Below, in pieces: positions 33,731-51,984 of a DNA stretch of 64,000 bases; positions within the stretch are counted from its first letter, which is position 1; each line of letters opens with the position of its first letter. The position numbers and the translations under genes are program-made. The DNA is from an uncultured Fibrobacterota bacterium (GTDB lineage Bacteria; Fibrobacterota; Chitinivibrionia; Chitinivibrionales; FEN-1185), in the NCBI GenBank assembly GCA_963753345.1, contig CAVWBU010000049.1:207017-271016 (forward strand). Direction: 5' to 3'. The notes beneath the pieces are model-generated. The model was not told the DNA's origin. It worked only from the letters and a program-made list of their open reading frames with translations, and did not search any database.

Positions 33731-33807
<77 letters not shown>

Positions 33808-33968: not shown

Positions 33969-34083
33969 TATATAACCCTCAGACGGGTTGGTAACTTAGG
34001 CCGGTCTTGTAACCGGCCTTTGTTATTTTTTGGTCACACTGTTGGTCATGTCGCAGCTGCCCGAATGATTTCCTACGTTTGAA

Positions 34084-34285
34084 TAGCACAGCCCGCGCAA
34101 TCCCCGCGAGTTCGCTTACGCGGCTACTCCTGTGGTATGTATGCAGGCGTAGTCGTGGTGGCGCGGGGTTAGCGGGCGAATATTTATTATTCTATTTCCT
34201 TAGCTATGGAAGACCACGCAGTAGAGGCCGCAGACGTGCTTCGACCGCATGGCCAATCCCCGCCACTTCAGGCGGGGTTTTTCAA
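34084..34285 (+). mobile_element. Two-hairpin miniature element, copy B (202 bp, two internal insertions)
   Basis: TGAA|TAGCACAGCCCGCGCAATCCCCGCG..CGCGGGGTTAGCGGGCGAATAT..ATCCCCGCCACTTCAGGCGGGGTTTTTCAA. Confidence 0.85.
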
Positions 34286-34439
34286 TCCCATAGTCCACCT
34301 GTCAAAATTTATTAATGTATCGGATTGGTGAACAAAGTTGTTAACTAACAGCCGCTTTCGGAACCGCGGGCAGTTAGATTATTTGCGGATGAGTTTCGTG
34401 ATTGGTGATTTTTCGGTTAGTATCGACAGGAGGTATGAG

Positions 34440-34634
34440 ATGTCTTGCAAAATGCGATTTTTATTCCTTGACAGGTATCAACGACGATTGTCGCATATGT
34501 CACTTGGTGCGATTCTGGCGTTATTGACAATATGCATAGCTATCCGGGCCCAGGACACCGTAGATGCCACGACACTAACCGGCAAATACATGTGCGGTCT
34601 CGTCTGCGGCGAATATGGCGCTTCCGTCTGCTGA
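34440..34634 (+). pseudogene. Truncated remnant of a secreted glycoside hydrolase (GH71/99-like N-terminus)
   Basis: GGAGG RBS, signal peptide, then VDATTLTGKYMCG, resembling the (V/Y)MCGYQGWF start of GH71/99-like proteins; stops shortly after. Confidence 0.45.
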
Positions 34635-34745
34635 TTTTACAACTTATTCGCCATATTCAACTTGTCAATAGGGCTCATAACCAAAATGTCGCTCGTTCAA
34701 ATCGGGCCGAAAATGCCGCTGATAACCAGGTCAATATCCGATCAT

Positions 34746-36929
34746 CTATTTCAAAATAAACTTCTTGTTGATCTTCTGCCGATCTGACTCCGCAGTAACA
34801 AAGTACACGCCCTTTGGGTATTCTGAGACGTCAATGTCTTGTGCGGTGCGGGTATTCGTACTGCCTTGGTACACTACGCGACCCTGAACATCGGTAATAA
34901 AAAGCCGATTTACCGGCAGGCCGCCCAAGGCAAAGTGGAGATGAGTGCCTGCAGCACGAAGATAAATTGCAACGGTTTTCGCTTGGGATGAGGTTGTGGC
35001 CTTTAAAGTTGCGGTGTTTTCCTGGAAAAACCTGAAATAGTTTATGTTGTACAGATATCCGGACCCCTTATATACCAGATAAAGGTTTTGCAATCCTTTG
35101 GCTAAAGCAATTGGCGCTGCAACAGTTGTGTAGGTACTCCAGCTGCCCGTGCCTGGTACCGTAACGGTTCCGATCAGTGTGCCGGTTATTCCACCAAGCC
35201 TGATTTCAATGGTTCCGCCGGCCGTTGCGCTCGAAACTCTGAATCCGACACTATCAGCGCCGGTTGAACCAAAATCCACGTTCATGTATGCGGTGTAGTA
35301 TCCGTCCTGAATGCCGCCAAGCTGGTCAACGCCGCTCACGTCGGCGGTTGGTTCGACAATGACCCCTTTCAAATAATCAAAGTCTTCAGCTTCAATTGTT
35401 GCGTAAGCGTCTTTGGTGATTGTTGTAGACAGAGGACAATTGATCATCAGCGAAACGGCCGTAGATGCGCTGAACGCCGTGTACTGCGCGGTATCGGAAG
35501 CCCTGTTTCCCCACAAGGTGCCGATAATATCGCTTGTGTCACGGTTGTTATAGGCTACTTTTGCGTTGAGCTGCAACCAGGCTATATAATCGGGCTTGTT
35601 GAGATCAACGACATAGCGACGGGCATACCGCATGAATATTCCCTTGAATCCGCAGAGATCCGGTCCGTCCTCCGAATTGATTACATTCGATTGGAACATG
35701 GTGTTTTGCGTATAGCCTGCAATGGTGAGTGCATCATCGAGATAGGTGGTGTCTTTGGTGTAATTGTAAAGCATTACCGCAGCGCCCAGGTATGTTCCTT
35801 GATTATAGGTAGAACTCCAGTCACCGACCTTTCCGTCATAATTATCGTTCACCTTGCCGGTGCTTCTGACCAGCAAGTATATCCTTGACCACGTGTAGAT
35901 TTGCTGTGCCTTTGTAAAGTACGTTGTGTCGCCTGTTGCCTGTCCCAGGTACATTGCCGCCACGGTTGCCGGCCCGTTGATACAGGAGTTTTTCGTGGTC
36001 AGCCCCTGCTCCCACAATAACCCACCGCCGTACCCGGTAGTCCACGCGCGGGAATACATCTCGTCAAATTGTTGTTTGGCCTTGTTCAGGTAGGTTTGGT
36101 TGCCGGAAAGGAGAGCGGCGCGAACACATGCGATGACCGCCCAGGTGATATCATCGTTAAAATTGTTCCACATCCAGTCGGCGCCCTGTTTCGCGATAAA
36201 TCCCTTGTACATCTGATCGAACATGTCCCTGTATTTTGCAAGACCGGTGACTTCGTAGGCGTCATCCACAATCTCCATTATTTCGGCGATACCCCAAAAG
36301 CCCTCGCCGTTGACATACCCTCCTGCCGCATCTGTCGAGTAATACTTGGTTTTCCATGCCGCAAAAATCTGATCGGCAATCGCAGCAGCGGGCGCGGCAA
36401 TCTGGGATGATTGTGCCTGGAATAGCCACTTTTGAGAGTCATCGGAATTCGATTGCCATAAGAGGACATTGGCGCCATTTGCATTCGTTCCGTTCAATAG
36501 ATCGAGTGAAAAATTCGGGTTGGCGGCGGTTTTCAATTCATAGTAGCCGCCGCCGGCATCCACGATGCTCCACGCAACGGTGTTGTCGTTGGTGTTGCTG
36601 TTCTGATCAACATTTACCGAGTTGGCAGGTGTTGCATTGGCACTATGCAACAATTTCCCGCTTCCGGCGTTTGTCAATGTGTAGAGGCCATTTCCGCTGT
36701 AGATCACCATCCAGCGCTCCGCATCCGATCCAGTATTCGTCCATGTATCGACATTGCCGCCATTTGCCATGGAAGAATTGCCGACATCCAGCAATTTGCC
36801 GCTCGCCTTGGATGAAAGAGTGTACAGTGCGCCCGATGTAATGCCGGCGGTTTGTGGGAAACAAATGTCAATAGCGGCCAGCACCATAATTAGCAAAAGG
36901 CAAACCGGATGAAACGGGAATGATTTCAT
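34746..36929 (-). CDS. GH76 alpha-1,6-mannanase-like enzyme with ricin-B lectin, CBM6 and T9SS-type C-terminal domain
   Basis: NFNDDITW, KNSCINGP, TYNQGTYLGA, FKGIFMR; QxW ricin motifs; IEAEDFD..VDFG..TGSWSTY; DVQGRVVY..PKGVYFV..KKFILK. Confidence 0.9.
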   Translation of the reverse strand: MKSFPFHPVCLLLIMVLAAIDICFPQTAGITSGALYTLSSKASGKLLDVGNSSMANGGNVDTWTNTGSDAERWMVIYSGNGLYTLTNAGSGKLLHSANATPANSVNVDQNSNTNDNTVAWSIVDAGGGYYELKTAANPNFSLDLLNGTNANGANVLLWQSNSDDSQKWLFQAQSSQIAAPAAAIADQIFAAWKTKYYSTDAAGGYVNGEGFWGIAEIMEIVDDAYEVTGLAKYRDMFDQMYKGFIAKQGADWMWNNFNDDITWAVIACVRAALLSGNQTYLNKAKQQFDEMYSRAWTTGYGGGLLWEQGLTTKNSCINGPATVAAMYLGQATGDTTYFTKAQQIYTWSRIYLLVRSTGKVNDNYDGKVGDWSSTYNQGTYLGAAVMLYNYTKDTTYLDDALTIAGYTQNTMFQSNVINSEDGPDLCGFKGIFMRYARRYVVDLNKPDYIAWLQLNAKVAYNNRDTSDIIGTLWGNRASDTAQYTAFSASTAVSLMINCPLSTTITKDAYATIEAEDFDYLKGVIVEPTADVSGVDQLGGIQDGYYTAYMNVDFGSTGADSVGFRVSSATAGGTIEIRLGGITGTLIGTVTVPGTGSWSTYTTVAAPIALAKGLQNLYLVYKGSGYLYNINYFRFFQENTATLKATTSSQAKTVAIYLRAAGTHLHFALGGLPVNRLFITDVQGRVVYQGSTNTRTAQDIDVSEYPKGVYFVTAESDRQKINKKFILK

Positions 36930-37188
36930 GGCCTCTTCCTTCCTTTCAGATTTCTATCAGCGCGTGGTCCCGTCCTGTGAAATGACCGCGTTTGAGACAA
37001 ACTACAGGTAATTTACCTCTAAAATATTTCATCAGCCTGGTGATTATCTCTATCGTTGGAGAAGAGCTGAACATTAGGTAGGTATGGAAGAATGTTTCAT
37101 GTGGGTCCGGTTTCCCAAAAAGGAGCTTCCAATCAGCTCACCAATACCAAGAATATTACCGGTAATTGATTATTCAAATTGAGCCGTT

Positions 37189-37923
37189 ATGCAAAAACAT
37201 AATACTGTGGTTTTAATTCTGGTTTCATGCGTTGTGCTGATGGCAATGTGGGGCTGCACATCGCCATCCTCCAGCCCGACGTCATCAACCATTAATCTCG
37301 GTTTGGTTGCTTATTACCCCTTTAATGGGAATGCAAACGATGAAAGCGGCCATGGGTTCAATGGAATTGTCAATGGCGCGACATTAACGACAGACAGGTT
37401 TGGTCATCCTGATAAGGCATATTACTTTAACGGAAGCAGCGGCATTTCAACAACCGTGGATACAACTTTGTCTTTAACGAAATTCACCATGGCGGCCTGG
37501 TTTGAGAGTGATGCGGCAACAAATGCCCGCATTGTGGCGGTAACCCGGCTGTCCCAATGCAATTGCTACTATGGAATCATCCATGAGAATCAGAACGAAC
37601 TGCAGATCATGCTGCTCACTGATTCCACCAGCGTCACCGGATACAGGGTGAGTAACTCTCAAGCAGCGCCCAGCTCGGGATCATGGCATCACTGCGCGAC
37701 AACATATTCCAACGGAGTCCTGAAAATCTACGTTGACGGTGCACTTGATGATTCGGTGACTTCCGTGGCTCCTCTGGAAACGCAATTCAGGTCCTCGGCG
37801 GCTTTGCAAATAGGGTTTTGTGCCGCGGATAACAAATTTATCGGCAAATTGGATGATATTCGAATCTATAACAGGGTTCTAACGGATGCTGAAATAGCTG
37901 CTGTCTATTCGTTCCTTAATTGA
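37189..37923 (+). CDS. LamG-like jellyroll domain lipoprotein
   Basis: Lipobox MWGC; GLVAYYPFNGNANDESG, DRFG, WHH..TY..IYVDG, GKLDDIRIYNRVL. Confidence 0.88.
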   Translation: MQKHNTVVLILVSCVVLMAMWGCTSPSSSPTSSTINLGLVAYYPFNGNANDESGHGFNGIVNGATLTTDRFGHPDKAYYFNGSSGISTTVDTTLSLTKFTMAAWFESDAATNARIVAVTRLSQCNCYYGIIHENQNELQIMLLTDSTSVTGYRVSNSQAAPSSGSWHHCATTYSNGVLKIYVDGALDDSVTSVAPLETQFRSSAALQIGFCAADNKFIGKLDDIRIYNRVLTDAEIAAVYSFLN

Positions 37924-38122
37924 CAAGCGAACATGCTTCTTTCTGTCGTAATGCCTTGCTGTCTATCAGCCTGTATATACTTTGACCAGCCACGTGCTTT
38001 CCGTCTTCCTACCCACCTTTTTCAGGGAGGAAGCCAGCATGTAACATAATGGGGTTTTTGCTCTTGCTGTCTTGACCGCCGACATCATGCCATGGGGCTG
38101 GGGCGTGAAATCGAGCCCCCGC

Positions 38123-39166
38123 TTACCTCATCCGTTTGTAAACAACATGCGCCCCATCGTTCTCACTTCCCTCGTAATGCCCGCGGTTGATCCTTTTTAC
38201 GGTGTTGACTATGGGCGCCTTGGCGACCCCGACCCACTCCTTGGTGAATGTTGCCGTGCCGCTTGCCGGGTCATACCTGAAACCCGTAATATTGAACTTG
38301 TGTTTGCCTTCGACCATGCACTTTGTTCCGTCAACAATCTGGAACTCCTCAGACCCTGACTCCCCTCCATCGTGAGAATAGGCATTGCTCCATATCCCTG
38401 GAAATATGGATTCAATTGTTGCGCCGGTCTGAGCCGGTGCAACGCCCTGGTCCGGAGAAGGAACGGATATCGCGGCCGGCGCTTCTGCCGCTTGTAAACC
38501 TACAACTCGCGCTTTTTCCGTTTTTGCAGGAATGGACGCAGGGGCGGGCGCTTTCATGGCTTGCGGGCCCGTATCCGGCGCCTTTCCTATTCTTTCGGGA
38601 ATCTCTTCCCTGTGTTCAACTGTTTGCGGCGGCAATGGCTTCCCACCCGCTTTTACGGTCTTCCCGGATTTCCGCTTCTTCAATTCAGCCTTGATCTTTT
38701 TAAGAAAGTTCTTCGAATTGTCATGCCAGTTCGATTTCAATTCGTCATCCTTAACGGCCTTCCGGTCCAGGGACTTGTTTACTTCCTTGCACAAGGTGAA
38801 CACTTGCTGTTCATTCAACGCCGTTGCCTTAAACAAGGACAAGGGCATCTTCAGATTGCCGGGCGTCATGTTAATTAATACAGGGAGGATCTTGTTGTCT
38901 CTCGATCCCTTATAAATGGAACCGGCCTCAAAATGAATCCGCGGATTCTCCGCAGTGTCTTTTGTCAGGAAGACGAGCGCACAGGCGGAGCGGGCCATTC
39001 GCTTCGACGTTTCGTTAAGCCATTGTTTTCCCTTCTTGGTTTCCAACGGCACATACGGATTTGCCCCGGGAACAATCTTTGGAAGATATTCCCGGAAAAT
39101 TCCTGCAATTTTCCGGCTCAAAGGACCGTCCCAGCTCATGAAGACATTTTCCGAAGCCATAGTCAT
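38123..39166 (-). CDS. TIR domain protein with Pro/Ala linker and beta-rich C-terminal domain
   Basis: VFMSWDG..SRKIA, KGKQW, ALVFLT, NPRIHFEAGSI (catalytic-type Glu), ILPVL. Confidence 0.8.
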   Translation of the reverse strand: MTMASENVFMSWDGPLSRKIAGIFREYLPKIVPGANPYVPLETKKGKQWLNETSKRMARSACALVFLTKDTAENPRIHFEAGSIYKGSRDNKILPVLINMTPGNLKMPLSLFKATALNEQQVFTLCKEVNKSLDRKAVKDDELKSNWHDNSKNFLKKIKAELKKRKSGKTVKAGGKPLPPQTVEHREEIPERIGKAPDTGPQAMKAPAPASIPAKTEKARVVGLQAAEAPAAISVPSPDQGVAPAQTGATIESIFPGIWSNAYSHDGGESGSEEFQIVDGTKCMVEGKHKFNITGFRYDPASGTATFTKEWVGVAKAPIVNTVKRINRGHYEGSENDGAHVVYKRMR

Positions 39167-39595
39167 CCTTTCTGAGAAAGAAATGTGTCCGTTTGTTTCC
39201 TTGATGCCTCTTGCCGCGCAATCCCCGTGACTTGGTTCCTGATTCTTCTCTATAAACTAAGTTATCACTCATACGGTAAGTCAACTCTATCCCGCAAATA
39301 GATTGCTCCGAGTCTCTGATGGTGAGGGTTAAGCGGCTGCCGGCGAAAATTGGTTGACATTGCATTGTTGACAAAAATATCGCGGCAACCGTATACTCTC
39401 AAGTGATGGCCCTCCTAGGAAATAACGAATGTTTCAAAGCCCTGTCTTCTGTTTCTCCCTTTGCCGGAGAATGCTATTAAGGTGCGTTCTGCGCGCATCT
39501 CCAGCCGGCCGTCCAGAATTGTTTGTCCGGTTTTGGCTACCGGTCCACTTTGGCACTACGGTTCCAACGAATATCAAGAAGAAAGCGACTGGTCT

Positions 39596-40420
39596 ATGAG
39601 GACGTCTGCTTGTTTGCCGGCTGTTGTTATAATCTTCAATTCTTGTGCTCTCGCTCAGGTTGACACTATCCATGATACCACTGATTTTCCGACCAAGTAC
39701 AGTATCTCGGTAACCCCGATGGCGACATTGTCCTGCCCGAATTTCAAGTTTGGCGACAATTATTCACCCTATTGGGGAGGTGGCGCCAAAGCCTGTCTTA
39801 CCATGGACGTCAGGGAAGGCATGGCGGGATTTGATTTGGGTTTGTCGTGGTATTACGATCAGTTCAAGGCAAAAGAAACAGGTACAATCGCCGGCATGAA
39901 CAATCTCAGTTTAGGTTTTGACATGTATGTTTATTGGATTATTTCCGGAATTAACTTCGGTGCCTCCCAATTTGATGCCAGTGATGCAATTTACAATAGC
40001 CTTGGTGGAAAAACAGGTACGGAATTTGGCGCCCGAAACAGGGAATTGGCATTTTCTTATTCCCGCTATTTCGGTTTGCGTGTCCCGATCGGCGGCTGGG
40101 TTGCTGTGGACTGCGAATATCAGCTTGTTTCCCTGGAAACAAGCTATATGTTCTGGCACAACTCGCTTTCCGGCGGGATCGCAGGCGTAACTATGGCGCC
40201 TTTTACCCTTGCTGCCGCAAGTTGCCTAATGAACAAAAATATTCTAGGGGCAATTATTTCGAAGGTATTGGGCGCCGGCGTTTCCTGGGCCTGGTATTAT
40301 TTCGGTTACAAGAATCACGACTGGCCTTGGCATGATCCCAGTCCGATGTGCTTTCCACGATGTCTCCTTGGGGTAACTTTCAATATCGGGCGTTGGGCTC
40401 CAATTCAGGACGCAAATTGA
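39596..40420 (+). CDS. Hypothetical exported or outer-membrane protein
   Basis: Signal peptide-like N-terminus, aromatic amphipathic strands, LGVTFNI near the end. Confidence 0.55.
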   Translation: MRTSACLPAVVIIFNSCALAQVDTIHDTTDFPTKYSISVTPMATLSCPNFKFGDNYSPYWGGGAKACLTMDVREGMAGFDLGLSWYYDQFKAKETGTIAGMNNLSLGFDMYVYWIISGINFGASQFDASDAIYNSLGGKTGTEFGARNRELAFSYSRYFGLRVPIGGWVAVDCEYQLVSLETSYMFWHNSLSGGIAGVTMAPFTLAAASCLMNKNILGAIISKVLGAGVSWAWYYFGYKNHDWPWHDPSPMCFPRCLLGVTFNIGRWAPIQDAN

Positions 40421-40697
40421 GGCTTGCCGGGAACAAGTTTATGACCGGCGTTTGAAGGGATGCCGAGCGCTCTTGCAGCGGCTGTTTCGGCCACTTTTCT
40501 TGTCACCACGCTGCCGGTAATAATTGCGATACCTGCAAGAGTTTGACCATGAGCGCGCAGGGCGGTCAACCACGGGGAAATACGGCAGGAGATCGCAAAA
40601 AAAATGGGCAAAAAACCATTCCAAAGCGTATCTTTATGAAAAGCAACAATCGCACGTTTTTCTTTGTCTTATTCACCAAAAGATGGGGGAGGGTGAA

Positions 40698-42250
40698 ATG
40701 AAAAAAGCGGCAGTGTCGTGTCTGATGGCGGCGTTATTCGCCTGGTCTGTCTTTTCCCAAACCGTCAACATTTGCGGAAAGGTGACGGACCCGGCAGGGA
40801 ATCCCCTGACCCACACGGTGGTCAGGCTGGGCCAGGCAACGCAGGATTACGGTTTCGGGCCGATGCCGTATATGGTAAACACGGACGCCAACGGCCAATA
40901 CCAACTGGGAACAGGGGCCTGCCCTCCCACCAACGTACTTAGGGTAAGCAAGGCCGCTCATGGCGGCGCATATCCGAAGCCGGTGTACATGGGTGGAAAA
41001 GTGCTGTTCAGCGTGCTTCCGGTCAAGGCCTGGGTGAAGATGAGCATGTATGATCTGGCCGGCAGGTTTGTAAGAGACGTGTTGAACAGCACGCTTACCA
41101 GGGGAAATTACTCCGGATCGATTGACACGCGCGGGATTTCGTCACAGTACTATCTGCTTCGCGTGACCATCAACGGTGCGACAAACGTTTTGAAATTCCG
41201 TCCGCTTTCACGCGTTCAGGGCGCGACCCTGGCCCAAAACGAACCCGATTTCCAGGCCAGGCTCGAAAAAGTCGCGGCTGTGGTGGACACACTGCATGTA
41301 ACTGAACCGGGTTACAGCATCGGCGTCACGCCGATAGACACGCTGGTGGGGCATTACGATTTCGTGTTGACAAAGACCACTTCATGGACCGGCGACAAGG
41401 CCTCCATCGCCGCCTTCTGGGGAGACACGAGCACCTATCCGAAGAATTTTCAGTACATTATTCTCAACAGGACCAACGGTGCATGGCCGGACTCCAAGGT
41501 TTGCTGGGGGGGAACAAGACTCCGCTTTCCACGGCGAATACAAAGCCGATCGCCAGCGAGAGATTCTATATCTATATCGATCCCACCGATTCCAACAGCA
41601 GATATTTTGATTTTCTCGAAGTTAACGCAGGGGGCGGGATGTTCAATGGCAATTCCACCCGGGTGGACGGATGGAGGCTTCCCATTGCTTTCCGGCTCCA
41701 TACCTCGACCGGCATCGATACCATAATGGGCGATGCGTATGAAACGTTCTTTCAAACACGCCAGGCGAAATTTGATGAATTTCTGAATGAGGTGCCGAAG
41801 GAATTCACCCCTCTTGCAAAAGTAAATTTTGCCAATATCTATTCAGCCCAAATGATGGCGGTCAACTATTACAACACGGGCGGCGTGTATGCGACTTATT
41901 TCGACAAATACCAGGACTCTGTCATTGCCCACAACACAGGCGCACCTACTTTAACCACTACCTGGAACGTTTTGGCCTGTGCGGGTCCGTTGGGCGCTTC
42001 AGCCGATTGGTGCGCCGCCTACAACAGGCACGTCGGAACTCTGCCGCAAGGCGCGAATTTTGCAAACTGGCGCGTCAATGACTCCGCATCGTACTATCAG
42101 ACGGCGCCGTGCAACTATTTCTCGCGGTGGTGCCATCGTCGGTCGATAAACAATTACTGCTACGGGTTTGCCTACGACGACGACGGCGGCCATCAGGCGT
42201 TTATGGGCATAGGCAATGTCCAGTGGATTGCGGTCGCGATAGGGTGGTAA
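40698..42250 (+). CDS. GH64 beta-1,3-glucanase-like protein 1; frameshift in G run 41506-41512
   Basis: FDFLE..GNSTRVDGWRLP, NYFSRWCH..YGFAYDD; paralog of the intact genes at 44279 and 46503. Confidence 0.82.
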
Positions 42251-42282
42251 CAGGCCGACAAGTCCGCAGCGTTTTCCCGTAG

Positions 42283-42316
42283 AGAACCACGGCCTTTGGC
42301 CGTGGTTCTTTTTTTC
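42283..42316 (+). terminator. Rho-independent terminator
   Basis: AGAACCACGGCC-TTT-GGCCGTGGTTCT plus T tract; related hairpins at 44061 and 48113. Confidence 0.82.
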
Positions 42317-42463
42317 CCTCGCAGGGGCGCCAAGCGCAAGGGTGCTCGCAAAAAAAATGAGCGAAGGGCCGTTCCGAAGCGTATCTTAATGACATAAGAG
42401 AAATTGGACAAAGGCAAGTTCCGACCTGCCCTTCGGCTCAACCCGGAAAAAGGGGAGGGTGAA

Positions 42464-44031
42464 ATGAAAAGAACAGCAGCAGCGGGTCTGATGCTGGCAT
42501 TTTTCGCCTGGCCGGTTTTTTCCCAACCACTCTGCGTTGAGGGATTTGTTACCGATCAGAACGGACAACCCCTGCCCAACACGGAGGTCAGGTTGGGCCA
42601 GACAACCTATGACAATGGGTATGGGCAATCCCCCTACATAACGACAACCGGCAGCAACGGTTATTACTGGCTGGGAGAGGGAATTCTTTGCTGCGACCGG
42701 ATCGTCATCCCGAAAAGTACGCTTGCCCGGGGAGACGCCTTTTTGCAGCCCATCTACACGGGCGGAAAAGTCCTGTTTGGCCCTCCGGCGGGCGATGCGC
42801 TGGTGAGGATGAGCCTATACGATTTGTCCGGCCGGCTCGTGCGCGACGTGATGAACAAACGTCTTTCCAAAGGCGATTATTCCGTATCAATTGACACGCG
42901 CGGTATTTCTTCCCGGTTCTATCTGCTTCGGGTGACCATCAACGGCGCCGCTTTTGTCATGAAGCTGCAGCCCGCGTCGCGCCTGTCGGGAGGGGCGGTT
43001 GTCCAGAGTTCTCCCGGATTCGATACCCGGCTGGAAAAGCTCAGCGCGGCGGTTGATACCCTGCATGCCACCAAGCCCGGCTACACGATCGGCGTCACGC
43101 CGATAACCACCACGATGTGTGCGCGTTACGACTTCACCATGACAAAAAATACTACGTTCAATGGCGACACAAATGCCTTCTGGGGGGACACGAGCAAGTA
43201 TCCGAAGACGAGTCCGATTCAGTTCATTATTCTGAACCGGACCAACGGCGCGTTCCCGGACAGCAAGATTTTCTGGAGCAATCAGCAGAACGGAGCAAAA
43301 ACTTCTATCGCCACGCAATCCACGGTTCAGGATCCCCAACGGCGGCGGAAGGTTCTACATTTGGGTTGCTCCCAACGATTCAGGGAACCGATATTTCGAT
43401 ATTATTGAATTTAATTCTTCTGCAACGCACTTGGTCAGGCAATACCACCCGTGTGGATGGATGGAGGCTTCCGATAGCATTCCGGGTACATACCTCTATC
43501 GGCATAGATCCCACAATAGGTGACGTCTATGAAATGTTCTATCAGTCACGCCAGGCGAAGTTCGACGAATTCACAAACGAGGTGCCGAAGGAATTTACCG
43601 GTCTTGCCACCCAGGATTTTGCCCACATCTGGTCGCCCTATGCCTCGCCTGTCAATTATTTTGACACAGGCCGTGTATATGCAGACTACTTCGACAGGTA
43701 TCAGGATTCGGTCATAGCTCACAACCCCGGCGCACCTGCCAAAACGACTTCCTGGAACATTTTTGCGTGTAGAGGGTTTTCTTCACCTGATTATTCCGGG
43801 GCCTACAACAGGCACGTCGGAACGCTTCCTCAAGGCACCAATTTTGTGAACTGGCGCACCAACGACACGAGCTATTATTACCAGGCAGCGCCATGCAACT
43901 ACTTTTCAAAATGGTGTCACCTCAGGTCGTTGCACAATTTGTGCTACGGATTTCCTTACGACGACGGGAACCATTCGGCGTATATCCAACAGTACAATGT
44001 CCAGTGGGTGGCGATTGCGGTAGGGTGGTAA
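42464..44031 (+). CDS. GH64 beta-1,3-glucanase-like protein 2; frameshifts near 43331 and 43428
   Basis: Removing two single bases gives VQIPNGGGRFYIWVAPNDSGNRYFDIIEFNSSATTWSGNTTRVDGW; YGFPYDD..AVGW*. Confidence 0.8.
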
Positions 44032-44278
44032 ACGGTTGAGAAGCCGACGGTGATCTCAGAAGAACCACGGCATGATCCCGTGTTTCTTTTTTATTTCGAA
44101 CAGGTAAGAAGTATTTTTTAAAAAGGCTGATTGCTCGAAAAAAAACCGACGAAGTCCGGTTCCGCAGCGTATCTTTGTGACAGGAGCAAAGGCCTCGATT
44201 TCCCGAATCATGACGGATGGCATAGTAAAATTTACACGTTTAACAAGTTCTATTCACCAAAAAATGGGGGAGGGTGAA

Positions 44279-45898
44279 ATGAAAAGAACAGCAGTAGCGG
44301 GTCTGATGGCGGCGTTTTTCGCCGGGTCTGTTTTTTCCCAGACCGTCAACCTTTGCGGAGCGGTAACGGATCAGGGCGGGCAACCGCTCACCCATACCGT
44401 AATCAGACTCAGCACGACGACCTACGATAACGGCTATTGGGCCACGGCGCCCTATATGGCCGTTACCGACGCAAGCGGCCATTATCATATAGGGACCGGG
44501 ACCTGCATCGTCAACACCATTGTCCCGGGCACCCCTATGCGGGGCGAGGCCTTTTCGCAGCCGATGTATGTTGGCGGCAAGGTATTGTTCAGCCTCCCTC
44601 AAAGCAATGCGCCGGTGAGGATGAGCATATTTGACTTGTCCGGCCGGCTCGTACGCGACGTGATGAACAAAAATCTTTCCAAGGGCACCTATTCGGTGTC
44701 AATTGACACGCGCGGTATTTCTTCCCAGTTCTATCTGCTTCGGGTGACCATCAACGGTGCCGCATCGGTTATGAAGCTGCAGCCCGCGCTGCGCCTGACG
44801 GGCGGGGAAGTCGTTCAGAGCGTTTCCGGATTTGAGACCCGGCTGGAAAAGATGGCCGCGGTGGTGGACACCCTGCACGCCACCGAGCCCGGTTATACCC
44901 TCGGCGTCACGCCGATTGGCGCGCTGACGGGACAGTACGATTTCGTTTTGACAAAGAATAATACGTGGAACGGCGACAAGAACGCCTTCTGGGGCGACAC
45001 GAGCACGTATCCCAGGGCGGGCACTACGCCGATGTATGTCATGCTGAACAGGACCAACGGCAAATGGCCGGACAGCAAAATCGGCTGGACCACCACCAGA
45101 GGGGGTGCCACCACCCCCTTTTCACAAACTAACATGAAACCGCTCGGGGGCGGGCTGTTCATTTATATAGCTCCCACCGATTCAAATATGAGATATTTCG
45201 ATTTCCTTGAAGTAAATGGCGGCGGCGCCAGCTTTTTGGGCAACACCACCCGTGTTGACGGATGGAGGCTTCCCATCACGTTCCGGATCAAAACAACCGA
45301 CGGCAAAGACACCGTCATGGGCGACTCCTACTGGCTGTACTTCCAATCGCGCGAATCGAAATTCGCCGAATTTATCAATGAGGTTCCGAAGGAGTTCACC
45401 TGGGAGGCCACGCACGATTTCGCGAACATCTGGGCCCCGCATAAAATGGACCCCTTCCCCTTCCGGTCCACCGGACCCTATGGCGATTACTACAAACGGT
45501 ATCAGGATTCGGTCGTTAAAAACTATGTCAAGGACCCGCTCTGGGTGAATAAACCGGGCTACGGCGCACCCGCTAACGATCCCGGTCCCGAACCGGAAGT
45601 GACGCAGGCCGACGATGTTTTCGCCTGCGCCGGTGCGTTTGGCTCTTTACCCATTTGGGCGGCTGCCATGAACCGGCATGTCGCCCATCTGCCGCAAGGT
45701 GTTGACTGTTATAATTGGAGCTACGTCGATACCGCTAATTATTATACAGACGCACCTGCTAATTTCTATTCCCGCTGGTGTCATCGGCGAGCCATCAACG
45801 ACTACTGCTACGGCTTCCCCTATGATGACAATGGAGATCATGAGGCATACATTTCCATCGGCAACATCCAGTGGATGGCGGTAGCGATCGGGTGGTAG
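44279..45898 (+). CDS. GH64 beta-1,3-glucanase-like protein 3
   Basis: Signal peptide; YFDFLE..GNTTRVDGWRLP; AAMNRHV; NFYSRWCH..YGFPYDD. Confidence 0.87.
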   Translation: MKRTAVAGLMAAFFAGSVFSQTVNLCGAVTDQGGQPLTHTVIRLSTTTYDNGYWATAPYMAVTDASGHYHIGTGTCIVNTIVPGTPMRGEAFSQPMYVGGKVLFSLPQSNAPVRMSIFDLSGRLVRDVMNKNLSKGTYSVSIDTRGISSQFYLLRVTINGAASVMKLQPALRLTGGEVVQSVSGFETRLEKMAAVVDTLHATEPGYTLGVTPIGALTGQYDFVLTKNNTWNGDKNAFWGDTSTYPRAGTTPMYVMLNRTNGKWPDSKIGWTTTRGGATTPFSQTNMKPLGGGLFIYIAPTDSNMRYFDFLEVNGGGASFLGNTTRVDGWRLPITFRIKTTDGKDTVMGDSYWLYFQSRESKFAEFINEVPKEFTWEATHDFANIWAPHKMDPFPFRSTGPYGDYYKRYQDSVVKNYVKDPLWVNKPGYGAPANDPGPEPEVTQADDVFACAGAFGSLPIWAAAMNRHVAHLPQGVDCYNWSYVDTANYYTDAPANFYSRWCHRRAINDYCYGFPYDDNGDHEAYISIGNIQWMAVAIGW

Positions 45899-45917
45899 AA
45901 ATATCAAATAAAGATCT

Positions 45918-46082
45918 GGGCGTTTCCCCAAGAAAAGCCGCATGACAGTGCGGCTTTTCTTGGGGTCGGCCCTCCTTCCGGTCTCGGCCTTCGGCCTCGG
46001 GCCGCCTCGGCCCGATGGGCCCACAGGGCCGGGTCCGGGCGGCATCCCGCTATGGCGGGACCTCCAGTCCGGCCTAACGCAG
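45918..46082 (+). repeat. GGGCGTT(T)CCCC..CCTAACGC repeat module
   Basis: Same ends as 10507-10686 and 6381-6523; 17-bp perfect stem CCCCAAGAAAAGCCGCA/TGCGGCTTTTCTTGGGG. Confidence 0.75.
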
Positions 46083-46314
46083 GGCATAAGACACCGCCAC
46101 AATTGTCAATACTACCTCCGCTAACTGCGTGGTATTCTTCCTTGATCGCATCAACATGTGATCTGCTCACCACCGTTCTGCAATGGCAAGGGATTGCTCG
46201 AAAAAAAATGGCGAAGAATCCGTTCCGCAGCGTATCTTAGTGACAAGAGCGAGGGCATTGGTTTCCCGAACCATGACGGATGGCAAGTGAATTTTACACG
46301 TTTAACAAGTTCTA

Positions 46315-46476
46315 TTGAAGAACCCCGCAGCACCGCGACTGCGACAGCATACAACGCTACAGGAGCAGTCGCGACAGCGAACCTGCGGGGAATCTTCCAT
46401 CCCTATGGAAAGAAAACATACTTATAGTCGCTCGTATTCCCCGGAGCAAGCTCCGGGGAATACGCTCGCTGTGGGA
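46315..46476 (-). mobile_element. Two-hairpin miniature element, copy C (162 bp), in the leader of GH64 gene 4
   Basis: Close to copy A. The paralogous leader at 44243-44270 shows the empty site GTTCTA|TTCACCAAAAAATGGGG. Confidence 0.9.
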
Positions 46477-46502
46477 TTCACCAAAAAATGGGGGAGGGTG
46501 AA

Positions 46503-48080
46503 ATGAAAAGAACAGCAGTAGCGGGTCTGATGGCGGCGTTTTTCGTCTGGTCTGTCTTTTCCCAGACCGTCAACATTTGCGGAAAGGTGACTGACCCTTC
46601 TGGAAATCCCCTGACCCACACGGTGGTCAGGCTGGGCCAGGCAACGCAGGATTACGGTTTCGGGCCGATGCCGTATCTGGTAACTACGGACGCCAACGGC
46701 AATTACCAACTGGGATCAGGAAACTGCAACTTAGTAGGAGGCGTCATCCCGCGGAGCACGTTGCTGAGCGGCGATGCCTATCCAAAACCGGTATTCACGG
46801 GAGGAAAAGTGCTGTTCAGCGTGCTTCCGGATAAAGCCTGGGTGAAGATGAGCTTGTATGACCTGGCCGGCCGGTTCGTAAGAGTCGTGATGAACAGCGT
46901 ACAGACCAGGGGAAATTACTCCGTATCGATTGACATGCGCGGGATTTCGTCCCAGTATTATCTGCTTCGTGCAACCATCAACGGCGCGACAACCGTATTA
47001 AAATTCCGACCGCTTTCGCGGGCCCGAGGTGCAGGTATTGCCCAAAACGCTCCCGAATTTCAGCCAAGGCTTCAAAAACTCGCGGCCGTGAAGGACACGC
47101 TGCGCGCAACCGAGCCGGGCTACTCGATCGGAGTCACACCGATTGACACGTTGGCGGGGCATTACGATTTCGTTTTGACCAAGACCACCACCTGGACGGG
47201 CGATGCGGCCTCAATCGCCGCCTTCTGGGGGGACACGAGCACCTATCCCAAGAAGGGTTCGACTCCCCAGTATATAGTCCTGAACAGGACCAACGGCGCA
47301 TGGCCCGACGCCAAGATTTACTGGAGCCATGAGCAGGGCGGAACAAAGGTGCCGCTTACGCAAACGAATATGAAGGTACTCCAAAGCGAGCGGCTCTATA
47401 TTTATATCGCACCTTTGGATTCCCAATCCAGGTACTTCGATTTTCTCGAGGTCAATTCGAACGGCGTCAGTTGGGCCGGCAATACCACCAGGGTTGACGG
47501 ATGGAGACTTCCGATCGCCTTCAGGTTGAAAACCACCACCGGCATCGATACCATAATGGGCGATGAGTATGAAACGTTCTTTCAATCACGCCAGGCGAAA
47601 TTTGATGAATTTCTGAACGAGGTGCCGAAGGAATTCACCCCTCTCGCCACGGTGAATTTTGCCAATATCTATTCACCCCAGATGATGGCGGTCAATTATT
47701 ACAACACGGGCGGTGTGTATGCGACGTATTTCGACGAGTATCAGGACTCGGTTATCGCCCACAACCCCGGTGCACCCGCCAAAACGACTCCCTGGAACAT
47801 TTTGGCCTGCGCGGGTCCACTGGGCGCTTCGCCCGATTATTGCGCCGCCTACAACAGACACGTCGGAACCCTTCCGCAGGGTGCAAATTTCGCGAACTGG
47901 CGCACCAACGATTCCGCATTGTACTATCAGACGGCGCCATGCAACTATTTCTCGAGGTGGTGCCATCGCCGCGCGATAGACAATTTAACCTACGGGTTTG
48001 CCTATGACGACGACGGCGGCCATGAGTCGTACATGAATCCCGACAACGTTCAATGGATAGCGGTTGCGATAGGCTGGTAG
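46503..48080 (+). CDS. GH64 beta-1,3-glucanase-like protein 4
   Basis: YFDFLE..GNTTRVDGWRLP; NYFSRWCH..YGFAYDD..AIGW*. Confidence 0.87.
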   Translation: MKRTAVAGLMAAFFVWSVFSQTVNICGKVTDPSGNPLTHTVVRLGQATQDYGFGPMPYLVTTDANGNYQLGSGNCNLVGGVIPRSTLLSGDAYPKPVFTGGKVLFSVLPDKAWVKMSLYDLAGRFVRVVMNSVQTRGNYSVSIDMRGISSQYYLLRATINGATTVLKFRPLSRARGAGIAQNAPEFQPRLQKLAAVKDTLRATEPGYSIGVTPIDTLAGHYDFVLTKTTTWTGDAASIAAFWGDTSTYPKKGSTPQYIVLNRTNGAWPDAKIYWSHEQGGTKVPLTQTNMKVLQSERLYIYIAPLDSQSRYFDFLEVNSNGVSWAGNTTRVDGWRLPIAFRLKTTTGIDTIMGDEYETFFQSRQAKFDEFLNEVPKEFTPLATVNFANIYSPQMMAVNYYNTGGVYATYFDEYQDSVIAHNPGAPAKTTPWNILACAGPLGASPDYCAAYNRHVGTLPQGANFANWRTNDSALYYQTAPCNYFSRWCHRRAIDNLTYGFAYDDDGGHESYMNPDNVQWIAVAIGW

Positions 48081-48195
48081 CAGGCTGAGAAGCCTGCGGC
48101 GTTTTCCCGCAAAGAACCACGGCCTTTGGCCGTGGTTCTTTACTTTTGGGATACGAATAGCGGGATTGAAAGCGGCGACGCAGGTCCCGCTTCAC

Positions 48196-50025
48196 TCAGA
48201 CGGTTTTTTGATGAAATTCCTCCGCGACAACCCGGTTGCGGCCTTCATTCTTTGCCCTGTACAGCAATTCGTCAACCTTGGAAACGATGCTGTCGATGGT
48301 GAGGGTGCCCTTATCGGCCGATGGTTCCATGGAAAGAACGCCAAAGCTGGCCGTGACCCGCAGGTTATCATCAGGTGAGATAAAAACCTTTGTCTCAGTC
48401 GAGGTGCGAAAACGTTCCGCCACCGCCACGGCGCCCTTCATCGGGGTATTCGGCAATACGATCAAGAATTCTTCTCCGCCGTAACGCACGGCCCAATCGA
48501 TATCTTTACGGGTTGATCGAATGAGAATGGAACTGAATTCCTTGAGCACCAGGTCACCTTTGGCATGGCCGTGCTTATCGTTGATCTTTTTAAAATTGTC
48601 AAGATCACACATGACAATCGACAAGGGACCGCCGTAGCGCCGCAGTCTGGTAATCTCTTTGCCAAGATTGTCCACAAAATAACGCCGGTTAAAGCAATCG
48701 GTCAATTCATCGTGGACCGACAATTCATGCAGTTTTTCGTTGAGCGATCTCAGTTCCGATGTCCGCTCGTCAACCATGCGTTGCAGCCCGGTCCGGTGCT
48801 CAACCACCATCACGGCCATCCGATTAAAACTTCTTGCCAACGACCCCACCTCACCGCCGCTGTCATCCCAGGCCGGCACCGTGCCGTCTTCGGCAAACGT
48901 GTCGACCGCGGCGGTAAGTCTTCGTATCGGTTCGGCGATTGACCGGCTCAATACGTAGCTTCCGCCTATGGAGATGATAATCGCAATCAGGGCGAAAATC
49001 GCGGTCGTGTGAATGATATGGGTGATGCCGACAAAAATTTCTTTTTCAGGAACAGCCACGCCCGCGACCCAGTTTTTTTCGGTGAGCGGCGCCATGGCTG
49101 CATATTTGGCCGTCTTCTGGGCCTTAAAAACATAATGGGCCACCTGGACGCTTCGCGAGGAAATGCTTTGACGAAAAGCTGAATACACTTCGCCCAAATC
49201 AAGCGGCTCGATGGGTTTCTCGACAAATTGACGGGTGGAAGCGATCTCCGCCAATTGCGCCGAAGAAAGGGGAACGAGTGAATGATACGCCAATTCCGGT
49301 CTTGTATGGGTGAGAATTATTCCATCTTTGTTGATAATAAACGCGTCCTGCTCGCCGATTTTCATCTGTTCGACCCGGTTGGCCATTTCGGTGACGCGCA
49401 ATTTGAGGACCGCAATGCCGAGGATTTCCGACGATTCCTTGGCGGGATCGCGAAAAACCGGTGCTGAAAAGTAAACTCCGGGCTCTTTGCTGGTGAGGCC
49501 GATGCTCCAATCGCTCGCAAATGCCTTTCCCTTCATCGATTCCTTGAAGTAGCTGCGGACACGGTAATTGTTGCCGATAAATGTTCTGTCACTGGAAACC
49601 AGGCAGAGACCGGTTGTATCCATGAGATAAAATGCCGAGTACTCCGGGTTCATGGCGGTCTGGAGATCGAGCCAGGAGTTGAGGGCCTTAATTCTGGCGG
49701 GATCGTTTTTGCCTTTGACCAGAAAAGAGTTCATCTCGCTCAAACGCGTATATTGCTGAACCAGATTTCTGTGTACGGCAAGATACTTGTCTATCCTGGC
49801 AGCGAGTTTGCTTGAAGACGCTTTCAATTCGATGATTTTCCGGTCGGCCATGATCCGATGTTCGGTTGTTACCGTATAGACAGAAAACGCTATGATCGGA
49901 ATGGTTGCAATCAGAACAAAGGAAATCATCAGCCGCGTAAACAGGGAAAGCCGCCGCTTGAGCGGTTTGCCGGCTGCGCGCAGAGGCAGTTCGGTCTTCA
50001 ACGCTTCTGTTGACTCAGATTCCAT
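48196..50025 (-). CDS. Diguanylate cyclase with dCache sensor and HAMP domain
   Basis: Two TM segments, RSYFKE..YFSAPV Cache motifs, HAMP (GEVGSLARSFNRM), DLDNFKKIND.HGH.KGD, RYGGEEF. Confidence 0.93.
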   Translation of the reverse strand: MESESTEALKTELPLRAAGKPLKRRLSLFTRLMISFVLIATIPIIAFSVYTVTTEHRIMADRKIIELKASSSKLAARIDKYLAVHRNLVQQYTRLSEMNSFLVKGKNDPARIKALNSWLDLQTAMNPEYSAFYLMDTTGLCLVSSDRTFIGNNYRVRSYFKESMKGKAFASDWSIGLTSKEPGVYFSAPVFRDPAKESSEILGIAVLKLRVTEMANRVEQMKIGEQDAFIINKDGIILTHTRPELAYHSLVPLSSAQLAEIASTRQFVEKPIEPLDLGEVYSAFRQSISSRSVQVAHYVFKAQKTAKYAAMAPLTEKNWVAGVAVPEKEIFVGITHIIHTTAIFALIAIIISIGGSYVLSRSIAEPIRRLTAAVDTFAEDGTVPAWDDSGGEVGSLARSFNRMAVMVVEHRTGLQRMVDERTSELRSLNEKLHELSVHDELTDCFNRRYFVDNLGKEITRLRRYGGPLSIVMCDLDNFKKINDKHGHAKGDLVLKEFSSILIRSTRKDIDWAVRYGGEEFLIVLPNTPMKGAVAVAERFRTSTETKVFISPDDNLRVTASFGVLSMEPSADKGTLTIDSIVSKVDELLYRAKNEGRNRVVAEEFHQKTV

Positions 50026-50426
50026 GGGTATTATGTTTCTTCGCAATAGAAAATGATGGACAACTGCCGCGCTGTTGTGGAACACAATGAGAGAGAATCA
50101 GGAGATATAGTTCATTCTACCACTCACACGGTTTGTTGTCAATATCGGCAATTGGCCGCAAGTCTTGGGCACAACATTTTTCTGATGAAGAAGTCGGGGC
50201 AGCGCTTGCGTCGTTTCCAATAGGGGGACATATTAATGAGAGCGGTAAACAGATGACAAGTCATGAAACTGATAACGTCCGTTCGTGCTGAGCTTGTCGA
50301 AGCATGGACGGCCGCCGTTCGACTAGGCTCAGGGCGAACGGTTGCCATCTGTTTTCTGACCGGATTAATAACTGCGGAGGAACAAAGTGTGGCCCTTTAC
50401 ACAATGAGCATGTGCTATGGCGACGC

Positions 50427-51746
50427 CTATTTCAATTCGTACCGTGCTATCACAATGCCGCTCCCGGTTGCAAGCGAAGACAATGCGCTTGCGTCGCATC
50501 GTCCCGCATACAACGTTCTGCCCCGCATGTCGAACAATTCAATTCGTGTCGCATTGTGCGGCAGATTCATCAACAGCGTGTTCCTTGACAACATTGCCGT
50601 GACCGTATGCTTCCCCGGCGCCGGGACCGTTCGGCTGCCATTGTCATTGACCTTGGAGATGCCTTTGGTCACGAACTGGTAGAACTCGTTTCCCGCCATA
50701 AGGAAAGCGCCTTCGGTGTATTCGTCGTGGTTGGTCGGGCCAAAGCCGTTCGACGGCCCGCCGCCCACGCCTTGAGACCAGCCAGGAAGATTGGGGTGCG
50801 CGGGATCAACGCCCACACAGCCGATAAGACCTTCCCAGGCTTTTTTTGCGGGACCAAGATACGTGGCGGTGTCGATGATGCCGTTTCGCAATGCGTAAAA
50901 AAGTTCGTAGCAGAAAAAGCCGCTGCCGCTCGCTTCCTTGTTCCAGGCGGGCGTGAAGAGTTCGCTGCGCCACATGCCGTCGGTCTGGTTCTGCAGCGTT
51001 ATGAGTTCCGCGCAGGTCTCCCTGATTTTCTGTTCGAACCACGGCCGCCCCGGATGGCCGACCGGCAGGTACTGGTGAATCCTGCACGTCCCGCACACGC
51101 CCCAGCCGCAGCCGCGGCCCCACCACTGGCGGGTGACGCTTGTGTCGCTGCAATTGGAATTGAAAAGGTGGAATTTGATGTTGTAGTGGTGGTTTGCGTT
51201 CGTGCCCGCAAAATGATAAATCGAATCGTACATGACCGTGTCGTTGAGAATGAGCGCCGCGCGGGGGTAGCCCGGCGCAGCCATGTGATACTGGTCAACG
51301 ATGGGCCATTCAGCGTCACCGCATTTGTTGGGGCAAATCTGGTAGGTGTACCGGTTGAAATAAGCGAGCGCCGGACCCACATGCGGAAAATTCGCGGGTT
51401 GCGGGTCGGCAAGATAGGTTTCCAGATAGGCCTGATAACAGCAGATGTCGTCGTAGCTGGCGGCGAACGTGTCGGGCACCGCGGCGGCGGACAGCCACTT
51501 GTGGTAGTTTCCCCACGCCACGGTGCTGTCGAGGTACTGTTTGTCTTGTGTCAAGTTGTACAGAGCCATGATGCCCTCGAAATACGTTCCCACCTGCCAG
51601 CCGTTATAGAGCGTCGAATTAAGGCGTCCGCTTGCCACGCGCTTGCACATGTTCTTGATGCTGTCGGCAGCAAATTCCGGCTGCGCAAAGCTGATGTGGA
51701 AAAACAAAAGGGTCAGGAAAATGCATGCTATGCGCTTTATTTTCAT
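50427..51746 (-). CDS. GH88/GH105-like unsaturated glycuronyl hydrolase with C-terminal tail
   Basis: Signal peptide; DDIC, WGRGCGW, LQNQTDGMW, EASGSGFF, GAFLMAG; tail FDMRGR. Confidence 0.82.
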   Translation of the reverse strand: MKIKRIACIFLTLLFFHISFAQPEFAADSIKNMCKRVASGRLNSTLYNGWQVGTYFEGIMALYNLTQDKQYLDSTVAWGNYHKWLSAAAVPDTFAASYDDICCYQAYLETYLADPQPANFPHVGPALAYFNRYTYQICPNKCGDAEWPIVDQYHMAAPGYPRAALILNDTVMYDSIYHFAGTNANHHYNIKFHLFNSNCSDTSVTRQWWGRGCGWGVCGTCRIHQYLPVGHPGRPWFEQKIRETCAELITLQNQTDGMWRSELFTPAWNKEASGSGFFCYELFYALRNGIIDTATYLGPAKKAWEGLIGCVGVDPAHPNLPGWSQGVGGGPSNGFGPTNHDEYTEGAFLMAGNEFYQFVTKGISKVNDNGSRTVPAPGKHTVTAMLSRNTLLMNLPHNATRIELFDMRGRTLYAGRCDASALSSLATGSGIVIARYELK

Positions 51747-51871
51747 AGACCCTCCTGATTGACCTCTTCTCTGCGTTGTTGCCGAGCAATCCGCCATGCC
51801 ATTCCCGCCGCCTTCCCGCGGTCAGACCCACTCGTGAATATACGGTCTATTCCGCATTTTTAGTCATTGAA

Positions 51872-51984
51872 TAGCACAGCCCGCGCATTCCCCGCGACTT
51901 GGCGCGGGGTTAGCGGGCGAATATTTGTTATTCTATTTCCTTAGCTATGGGAGAATCCCCGCCACTTGGGGCGGGGTTCTTCAA
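51872..51984 (+). mobile_element. Two-hairpin miniature element, copy D (113 bp, minimal form)
   Basis: TGAA|TAGCACAGCCCGCGCATTCCCCGCG..GGGGCGGGGTTCTTCAA; nearly identical to copy B without its insertions. Confidence 0.87.

Follow-up and report, generated by a model that had tools for sequence, protein, structure and literature searches.

A probable IS200/IS605-type palindrome-associated element with covarying guide and target bases in an uncultured Chitinivibrionales bacterium

How does a repeat that is too short to encode an enzyme come to occupy precisely bounded sites in a bacterial genome? This question is raised by a 64-kb stretch of DNA (the window; positions 207017-271016 of contig C49 of draft genome G000), which holds four copies of a gene-less miniature element with two hairpins. 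We consider it likely, at a probability of about 0.78, that this element is a palindrome-associated transposable element (PATE) of the IS200/IS605 type of insertion sequence (IS) and that it works by guide-directed single-strand transposition. The reading is carried by the anatomy of the element, its site specificity, the absence of target duplication beyond an AAT ambiguity, insertion polymorphism and the covariation of guide and target. The host belongs to an uncultured bacterial lineage from sediment, peat and soil metagenomes, and G000 comprises 4.5 Mb in 55 contigs (55.9% GC, 94% completeness). The comparison set consisted of 31 genomes including G000, with seven others (among them G001-G005 and G007) from the same taxonomic family and 23 from eight other families of the order; L numbers (L013, L045, L259) denote single extracted loci.

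Copies, boundaries and empty sites of the element

An initial annotation of the window had proposed four copies, each following TGAA and ending in TTCAA, and reading all four bore this out. Copy A (490-606, + strand, 117 nt) has a type-A core, was delimited by nhmmer and alignment, and follows the target TGAA at 486-489. Copy B (34084-34285, +, 202 nt) has a type-D core with two extra modules and follows TGAA at 34080-34083, while copy C (46315-46476, -, 162 nt) has a type-A core, carries module M1 in its right hairpin loop and has its target TGAA at 46477-46480 on the minus strand. Copy D (51872-51984, +, 113 nt) has a type-D core and follows TGAA at 51868-51871. A four-way alignment likewise supported the proposed common skeleton with two subfamilies, A/C and B/D; copies B and C are longer because the extra modules sit in or beside their hairpins.

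Four is the correct count for the window, but the family is far larger. A profile made from 24 core-length copies gave 76 nhmmer matches in G000 at E<=1e-3, including 61 readable left ends and 62 right ends, and a strict regular expression paired 39 left and right ends in this genome. Allowing for redundancy among contigs, about 70 distinct loci is a fair figure. The copies fall into cores of 113-121 nt, one-hairpin forms of 49-50 nt and long forms of 147-216 nt. Among 36 matches to copy D in G000, 13 were at least 92% identical, and one, at G000:C35:96642, was a 100% identical twin. A DNA search with copy D found matches in seven of the 31 genomes counting G000, with six of the seven other genomes of the taxonomic family positive and none of the 23 from the other eight families; the search found no copy in G003, which belongs to the same genus and is 99% complete.

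As for the redundancy, some G000 contigs are mutually 80-92% identical (C44/C45/C46, C4/C5, C32/C54 and C5/C16) and share element insertions together with their flanks, which may reflect a strain mixture or duplication and leaves a few loci non-independent. Three pairs of loci with common flanks are due to such contigs.

We tabulated the flanks at the 61 left and 62 right ends. Positions -4 to -1 of the left flank read T in 55, G in 57, A in 59 and A in 61 copies; position -5 showed a weak preference only (T 33, G 18), and there was no information further out. At the right end, TCAA was kept in 60-62 of the 62 copies, the next base was T in 52, A in eight and C in two, and nothing beyond it was informative. 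Since the flank information ends at -5 and +1, there is no target duplication of variable length, and the longer variable duplications that the initial annotation had regarded as a sign of a different kind of element were absent from these flanks. Its claim that insertion occurs 3' of TGAA with no long target duplication was thus upheld by the ends and by the empty sites described below. The expectation of an invariant TGAA held for most copies but not for four that follow TCAA. Inverted terminal repeats were absent from the alignments beyond a 5-nt TTGAA/TTCAA symmetry, and the left and right ends were asymmetric.

Empty sites gave the boundaries to the base. Two paralogous genes with a GH64 domain (Pfam) have leaders that can be aligned to the left and right of copy C, and the leader without the insertion reads GGTGAA^TAGAAC (44247-44258, minus strand; here and below, a caret marks a junction, in this case 44252/44253). 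The alignment confirmed that this leader, previously read as GGTGAA^TAGA, serves as an empty-site control, and the 3-nt AAT ambiguity acknowledged at that time persists. Two further loci were filled in G001 and empty in G000, one was filled in G000 and empty in G001, and one was filled in both G000 and G004 and empty in G005. Moreover, the G004 orthologue of the gene that hosts copy A lacks this copy. Insertion was polymorphic between species in both directions, with precise boundaries at TGAA^T. Because presence and absence differ between species and near-identical copies exist, these comparisons indicate that the element was probably active after speciation.

Guides, cleavage sites and hairpins

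Read along its top strand, the element begins after the target as TGAA^T, followed by 13 nt of the form NN-CACAGC-NN-GCG, the left guide CATT and the left hairpin; a core of ~43 nt, the right guide (GAAT or GATT), the right hairpin, a 4-nt spacer and TCAA then follow, and the base of the flank after TCAA is usually T. In copy D, the left guide CATT occupies 51886-51889 (+), directly 5' of the left subterminal hairpin at 51890-51909 (+; CCCCGCG-ACTTGG-CGCGGGG). The right guide GAAT lies at 51953-51956 (+), the right subterminal hairpin at 51957-51976 (+), and the spacer TTCT together with the terminal TCAA at 51977-51984 (+), which is the 3' end of the element.

This arrangement can be compared directly with that of IS608 from Helicobacter pylori. 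As described in the available parts of PMC5934647 and PMC3201880, 4-nt guides 5' of each IS608 hairpin foot read the cleavage sites, with the left guide (G_L) AAAG pairing with the left cleavage site (C_L) TTAC and the right guide (G_R) GAAT with the right cleavage site (C_R) TCAA; A+16 pairs with T-3 and A+17 with T-4, and C_L lies 19 nt 5' of the left hairpin foot and C_R 10 nt 3' of the right one. We scored the rule as c-4:g2, c-3:g1 and c-1:g4 with A at the third position, which fits both IS608 ends; the c-1:g4 pair is one that we infer here, and it was then borne out by the survey of IS elements described below. Under this rule, the left guide CATT predicts TGAA, the observed target, and the right guide, whether GAAT (type D) or GATT (type A), predicts TCAA, the observed end.

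The miniature element resembles IS608, as far as the available text of PMC5934647 describes it, in inserting 3' of a tetranucleotide without duplication, in having subterminal hairpins on one strand and in its paired 4-nt guides, and type-D copies share the exact pair G_R GAAT / C_R TCAA with it. The distance from the left cleavage site to the hairpin foot is 18 nt in the element and 19 nt in IS608 (PMC3201880, available part). It differs from IS608 in lacking tnpA and tnpB, in being only ~117 nt long, in its unrelated hairpin sequences, in its left code (CATT/TGAA versus AAAG/TTAC in the IS608 description) and in the distance from the right cleavage point to the hairpin foot (8 nt versus the 10 nt given there).

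For the guide counts, we used hidden Markov model columns and 85 core-length copies, of which G000 contributed 48 and its relatives 37. The right-end rule was obeyed in 70 copies, broken in three and unscored in 12 owing to alignment gaps, while the left-end rule was obeyed in 62, broken in nine and unscored in 14. Among the breaks are several G.T pairs, such as TATT or CGAT with TGAA.

The most informative copies are those in which guide and target have both changed. In G000, four copies have the left guide GATT (C21:89060, C24:68563, C32:176051 and C49:44520, in contig coordinates), and these are the only four that follow TCAA (4/4). Orthologous empty sites were found for two of them (G001:C523 and G005:C35), each with a single TCAAT; since the empty sites already read TCAAT, the changed base belongs to the target and was not brought by the element. 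Within the element, the G of the GATT guide faces an unchanged G in column 46 of the lower stem, so the compensation is with the flank and not inside the hairpin. At the other end, all three copies found in G007, which belongs to another genus, end in TCAC. The rule predicts this end for the two whose right guide is GATG; in the third, with GACG, c-1 pairs with g4, although the full rule predicts TGAC. Guide and target therefore covary naturally, CATT with TGAA versus GATT with TCAA. A change of the guide base inside the element goes with a change of the target base in its flank, making this a natural case of DNA-guided target choice if the reading proposed here is correct, and the switch mirrors the engineered retargeting reported for IS608.

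The hairpins themselves are conserved and show compensatory changes. Both are subterminal and lie on the same strand, and in 82 distinct core-length copies we counted 564 Watson-Crick cells for hairpin 1 and 541 for hairpin 2. Compensatory pairs occur at columns 28-37 (CG 36, AT 24, GC 15) and columns 29-36 (AT 39, GC 37). Among the non-Watson-Crick cells, G.T outnumbered A.C by 60 to 13, an excess that fits folding of the top strand and selection acting on it in single-stranded form. In both subfamilies, the left hairpin is followed on its 3' side by the three bases TTA or AAT; in IS608, according to the available part of PMC5934647, bases at the corresponding place form triplets with the guide. 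At 47 of 71 loci, the top strand coincided with the strand that is locally richer in G (binomial p=0.009, in a draft genome with noisy local skew). This orientation bias has the sign expected if the element inserts into the lagging-strand template, for which it offers modest support.

Putative mechanism, candidate enzymes and rival explanations

If the miniature element moves as IS608 does, a Y1 HUH transposase supplied in trans would bind both top-strand hairpins as single-stranded DNA and would find the cleavage tetranucleotides through their pairing with the guide 5' of each hairpin (c-4:g2, c-3:g1 and c-1:g4). The element would be excised as a single-stranded circle, in which the right end TTCTTCAA is predicted to be joined directly to the left end TAGCACAGCC or TCCCACAGCG, and the circle would re-insert 3' of a TGAA paired with the left guide, leaving no target duplication. 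That the chemistry acts on single-stranded DNA, and which enzyme performs it, we infer only by analogy with IS608.

Several results weigh against guide-directed transposition by an IS-borne enzyme, and the search for this enzyme produced a number of them. Neither PF01797 nor PF07282 had a match at E<=0.001 in G000, and tblastn of a G002 transposase against G000 gave a best E of 0.047; because a draft bin easily loses small multicopy IS elements, absence from G000 is weak evidence. PF01797 detected a Y1 transposase in four of the eight genomes of the taxonomic family, and none of the 12 Y1 loci from these four holds the ends of the element, so that no HUH transposase with matching ends was found across the eight. 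The initial annotation had named such an absence from related genomes as a refuting condition, and its reading therefore does not come through this check cleanly; what the family genomes yielded was an IS200-type element in G002, alike in layout but not in its ends, and RAYT-like genes (both described below). The initial annotation's view of the element as non-autonomous and PATE-like is supported in cis, but the Y1 transposase that it supposed to act in trans is still a presumed one. Junctions, guides and hairpins also call for caution. Insertion without duplication and insertion with a fixed AA(T) duplication would look the same in sequence, and the junction ambiguity widens to 5 nt, TCAAT, in the TCAA subfamily. 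The left-end rule is broken in nine of the 85 copies. The four GATT/TCAA copies could share descent, in which case the covariation would stem from few events, a worry tempered by the position of their target base outside the inserted DNA. Many of the G.T pairs are subfamily markers, so that the excess counts copies rather than events, and the strand bias is modest (66%), with noisy local GC skew and a few loci made non-independent by redundant contigs.

G002 contains 6-8 copies of a 545-bp IS200-type element, here called ISx, which encodes a 144-aa TnpA and reads TTAG^T..AAAC(hairpin)..tnpA..AATG(hairpin)TCTT-TTAC^t; its left flank was TTAG in five of six copies, and the base after its right end was T in five of six. 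A metagenome scan was made with the ISx TnpA, and the best 80 of 219 relatives were kept as loci. With the cleavage site predicted as comp(g2) comp(g1) A comp(g4), a right end composed of a guide, a perfect hairpin, 4 nt and the predicted site was found in 66 of these 80 transposase-carrying IS elements; the guide/site pairs were GAAG/TCAC in 43, GATG/TCAC in 13, GAAA/TCAT in five, AAAG/TTAC in three and GATA/TCAT in two. The remaining 14 were mis-spaced, imperfect, cut by the end of the locus or mis-parsed. The left-end rule held in 51 of 63 IS elements with a detectable hairpin, with the predicted site 8-14 nt upstream of the guide. None of the best 80 metagenomic IS elements carries the ends of the miniature element.

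ISx and its 80 metagenomic relatives share with the miniature element the succession of guide, GC-rich hairpin, 4-nt spacer, cleavage tetranucleotide and T, as well as the pairing rule; in ISx, the first element base is likewise T, and the sequence before the right hairpin is similar (TGGAAtAATgCC vs TGGAAGAATCCC). ISx differs in carrying tnpA, in its guide/cleavage pairs (AAAC/TTAG and AATG/TTAC), which together with its different hairpins also count against it as the source of the moving enzyme, and in a left cleavage site that lies 14 nt from the hairpin foot rather than 18 nt; tblastn did not find ISx in G000. Because the right-end layout is the same and the sequence before the right hairpin is similar, the miniature element may be regarded as a deletion derivative of an IS from the general clade of ISx.

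The enzyme might instead be a domesticated one. The element could be a substrate, similar to repetitive extragenic palindromes (REPs) and bacterial interspersed mosaic elements (BIMEs), of HUH proteins resembling REP-associated tyrosine transposases (RAYTs), so that a single-copy enzyme rather than an IS-borne TnpA would act on it and the chemistry would still be of the HUH, single-stranded kind. Like the REPs, BIMEs and REPINs of E. coli and Pseudomonas, the element is a short, GC-rich, multicopy hairpin repeat in a genome with RAYT-like genes. A tblastn search with weak Y1 matches from related genomes found at least three of these in G000, on C27, C32 and C35, and a further fragment where C48 ends; they are the only Y1-type genes found there, no IS200-type TnpA having been detected, and HUH-like HxH and YY motifs are readable in their translations. 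In addition, a decayed RAYT-like gene in G002 (C32; L176) has a variant copy of the element directly at its 5' end. This is the sole adjacency, however: none of the three G000 genes or of 10 RAYT-like loci from relatives is bracketed by the element's hairpins. The three G000 genes match NF047646 at E=4e-16 to 2e-13 with scores of 50-59 bits, under the curated cut-off of 80, and Pfam Y1_Tnp at E=4e-4 to 0.03. RAYT-like genes occur in seven of the eight family genomes, including G003, which has no copy of the element, so that co-occurrence is uninformative. REPs are inverted doublets with a fixed 5' tetranucleotide, whereas the element's two ends differ from each other, its hairpins are directly oriented, it uses target and cleavage tetranucleotides, with guides, of its own, and its right-end layout matches that of the IS200-type clade. 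We therefore regard a RAYT-like mover as unlikely. A broader form of this idea, that the lineage has no IS-borne TnpA at all and that RAYT-like proteins move both this element and the other structured repeats that share module M3 with it (see below), we similarly hold to be improbable; if true, 'domesticated' RAYT-type enzymes would drive IS608-style guide-directed transposition of two-ended elements, which would explain how a genome fills with structured repeats without a classical transposase.

Two further explanations dispense with HUH chemistry altogether. A classical miniature inverted-repeat transposable element (MITE), moved by a DDE transposase, would make a fixed target duplication of 2-3 bp, AA(T), and its inverted ends, TTGAA...TTCAA, would be very short. 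The AAT ambiguity at every junction permits a 3-bp duplication, TTGAA is the reverse complement of TTCAA, and 33 of the 61 left ends have T at position -5; yet the inverted repeat stops at 5 nt, the ends are asymmetric, and 10 of 62 copies have a base other than T after TCAA even though AAT is kept on the left. Nor does a DDE model predict covariation of the target tetranucleotide with a base that lies 15 nt away within the element, and the only DDE IS near a copy (G002:C37) is unrelated and inserted in the core of the element with a CTAG duplication, which leaves a DDE-moved MITE extremely unlikely. The conserved hairpins with their compensatory changes, the G.U-type excess on one strand, a T-rich tract after the right hairpin and the location of most copies next to genes would all suit a structured small-RNA gene or terminator-like regulatory family that is spread by duplication and kept by selection on RNA. 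Against such a family, an Rfam scan of the 64-kb window at the gathering score returned two tRNAs only and no match to the element, copies lie in either orientation to their neighbours, with copy A antisense within a coding region, presence/absence boundaries between species fall precisely at TGAA^T, and a flanking base covaries with the guide. We consider this explanation very unlikely. An IS200/IS605-type PATE remains the reading that we prefer.

Comparison with known elements, modules and neighbouring repeats

PATEs are an already known type of mobile DNA, of which this family is a new example. The element fits their definition in the available part of PMC3119063, having no inverted terminal repeats, near-terminal palindromes, no target duplication and a non-coding length. 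The PATEs of Haloquadratum walsbyi (e.g. HqIRS46) are described there in these terms, as lacking inverted terminal repeats and target duplication, having near-terminal palindromes and being too short to code. The same text reports 52-bp terminal-only forms that arose when the DNA between both palindromes was deleted, palindromes that harbour other small repeats, homogeneous subfamilies of high identity, and copies that are polymorphic even though an intact IS200-type transposase is scarce or absent. The 49-50-nt one-hairpin forms of the miniature element parallel the 52-bp forms, and it too has modules in its hairpins. It differs in having a bacterial rather than a haloarchaeal host, in its unrelated sequences, and in that the guide code and covariation are directly readable. 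Of wider interest is that many near-identical copies occur with no cognate transposase in the assembly, as in Haloquadratum according to that source.

In Geobacillus stearothermophilus, the available part of PMC10055086 (Meers et al. 2023) describes gene-less ISGst PATE-like elements whose ends are common with IS200/IS605 elements and which are predicted to depend for their movement in trans on a TnpA from another locus; a candidate tnpA gene whose ends are similar is present in the same genome, and many of the elements encode omega RNAs for TnpB. G000 differs in that neither tnpA nor tnpB was found there (PF01797 and PF07282). A literature search on repeats of Chitinivibrionales turned up no paper whose listing pointed to elements like this one; the family was not searched for under other names. 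On our reading, the range of PATEs would come to include this uncultured lineage of sediment, peat and soil metagenomes, and one of the several repeat families that crowd G000 would be explained. In addition, base-exact boundaries of the element help gene calling. Copy A, for instance, lies inside the 3' part of a conserved radical-SAM/DUF2344 gene (open reading frame 313-2445, minus strand), to which it is antisense, as an in-frame insertion of 39 codons (117 nt) that leaves the frame open; the G004 orthologue aligns on both sides with a gap of 39 residues.

The modules that lengthen some copies have a distribution of their own. M1 is a 51-nt module that replaces a hairpin loop, in the left hairpin of copy B (34110-34160, +, 51 nt) and in the right hairpin of copy C (46331-46382, -). 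M2, of 42 nt, lies between GGAAGA and the right-end guide and hairpin in copy B (34214-34255, +), and all three of its BLAST matches fall within elements of the miniature-element family. M3, of 63 nt, is itself a long hairpin, with examples outside the window at C47:26493, C27:147226 and C35:68264 of G000; in some copies of the element it is located between guide and hairpin. Six of 17 BLAST matches to M1 and 24 of 27 to M3 lay outside the element family, inside other repeat families of G000; M1 and M3 are therefore either building blocks common to several families or separate small invaders. M3 is a fixed part of another abundant repeat family of G000, in which it always stands directly after AATT, CATT or xxTT, and this family may use the same sort of guide and hairpin unit.

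No autonomous copy was seen in G000, where no left end pairs with a right end more than 216 nt away. A pair of ends ~1.4 kb apart in G002 (C37) was rejected as such a copy, being an element split by an unrelated DDE IS. At this locus (L013; G002:C37:3500-8000), an IS with a 369-aa DDE-type transposase is inserted in the central palindrome of the element, TTCCTAG^G, with duplication of CTAG. We also discarded the 119 loci found by scanning a contig collection with a left-end pattern of 14 specified bases, a number attributable to chance; nhmmer left a single weak and unconvincing match among them (L081).

Some individual loci deserve mention. A type-D left end starts directly after the TCAA of a type-A copy in G001 (L045; C364), either as a tandem arrangement or as an insertion targeting the neighbour's right-end tetranucleotide, yet its guide CAAT predicts TGAA. 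The same intergenic region is occupied in opposite orientation relative to its flanks at G001:C302:9350-9449 and G000:C24:68563, and these two copies are probably independent insertions. On a metagenome contig (L259, 1-1423), a diverged copy at 188-303 reads TGAA^C...GATT(hairpin)ATAT-TCAA^T; a separate IS200-type element, with the right end GATG(hairpin)AGGT-TCAC, follows 300 nt downstream of it, a co-occurrence only. Two of the RAYT-like genes of G000 (C27:258800-261300, L175; C32:21100-23400, L174) are interrupted in frame by series of short GC-rich palindromes, and the one on C27 adjoins a small gene and a four-unit tandem array with a unit of ~111 nt.

In the assembled contigs of four public runs (<=0.35 of words), the joints over copy C stem from other copies without M1. 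One public-run contig ceases to match right after the TGAA at 51871. No joined right and left ends were seen in these assembled contigs, which are uninformative about excision and expression.

In the window, copy C precedes a GH64-domain gene by ~25 nt. Positions 45962-46091 hold a different repeat, GC-rich and ~130 nt long; it has very many copies in G001, G002, G004 and G005, and relatives of it are found at many contig ends of G000. Copy B lies 277 nt downstream of a tRNA-Met gene (33731-33807). Beside this gene, a segment of ~6.6 kb (33959-40582) with a GH76/CBM6 gene has no counterpart at the corresponding place in G004, in which the flanking syntenic blocks C6:65911-66666 and C6:66769-68496 are only ~100 nt apart; the segment, which has copy B at its tRNA-proximal edge, may reflect an island or a deletion.

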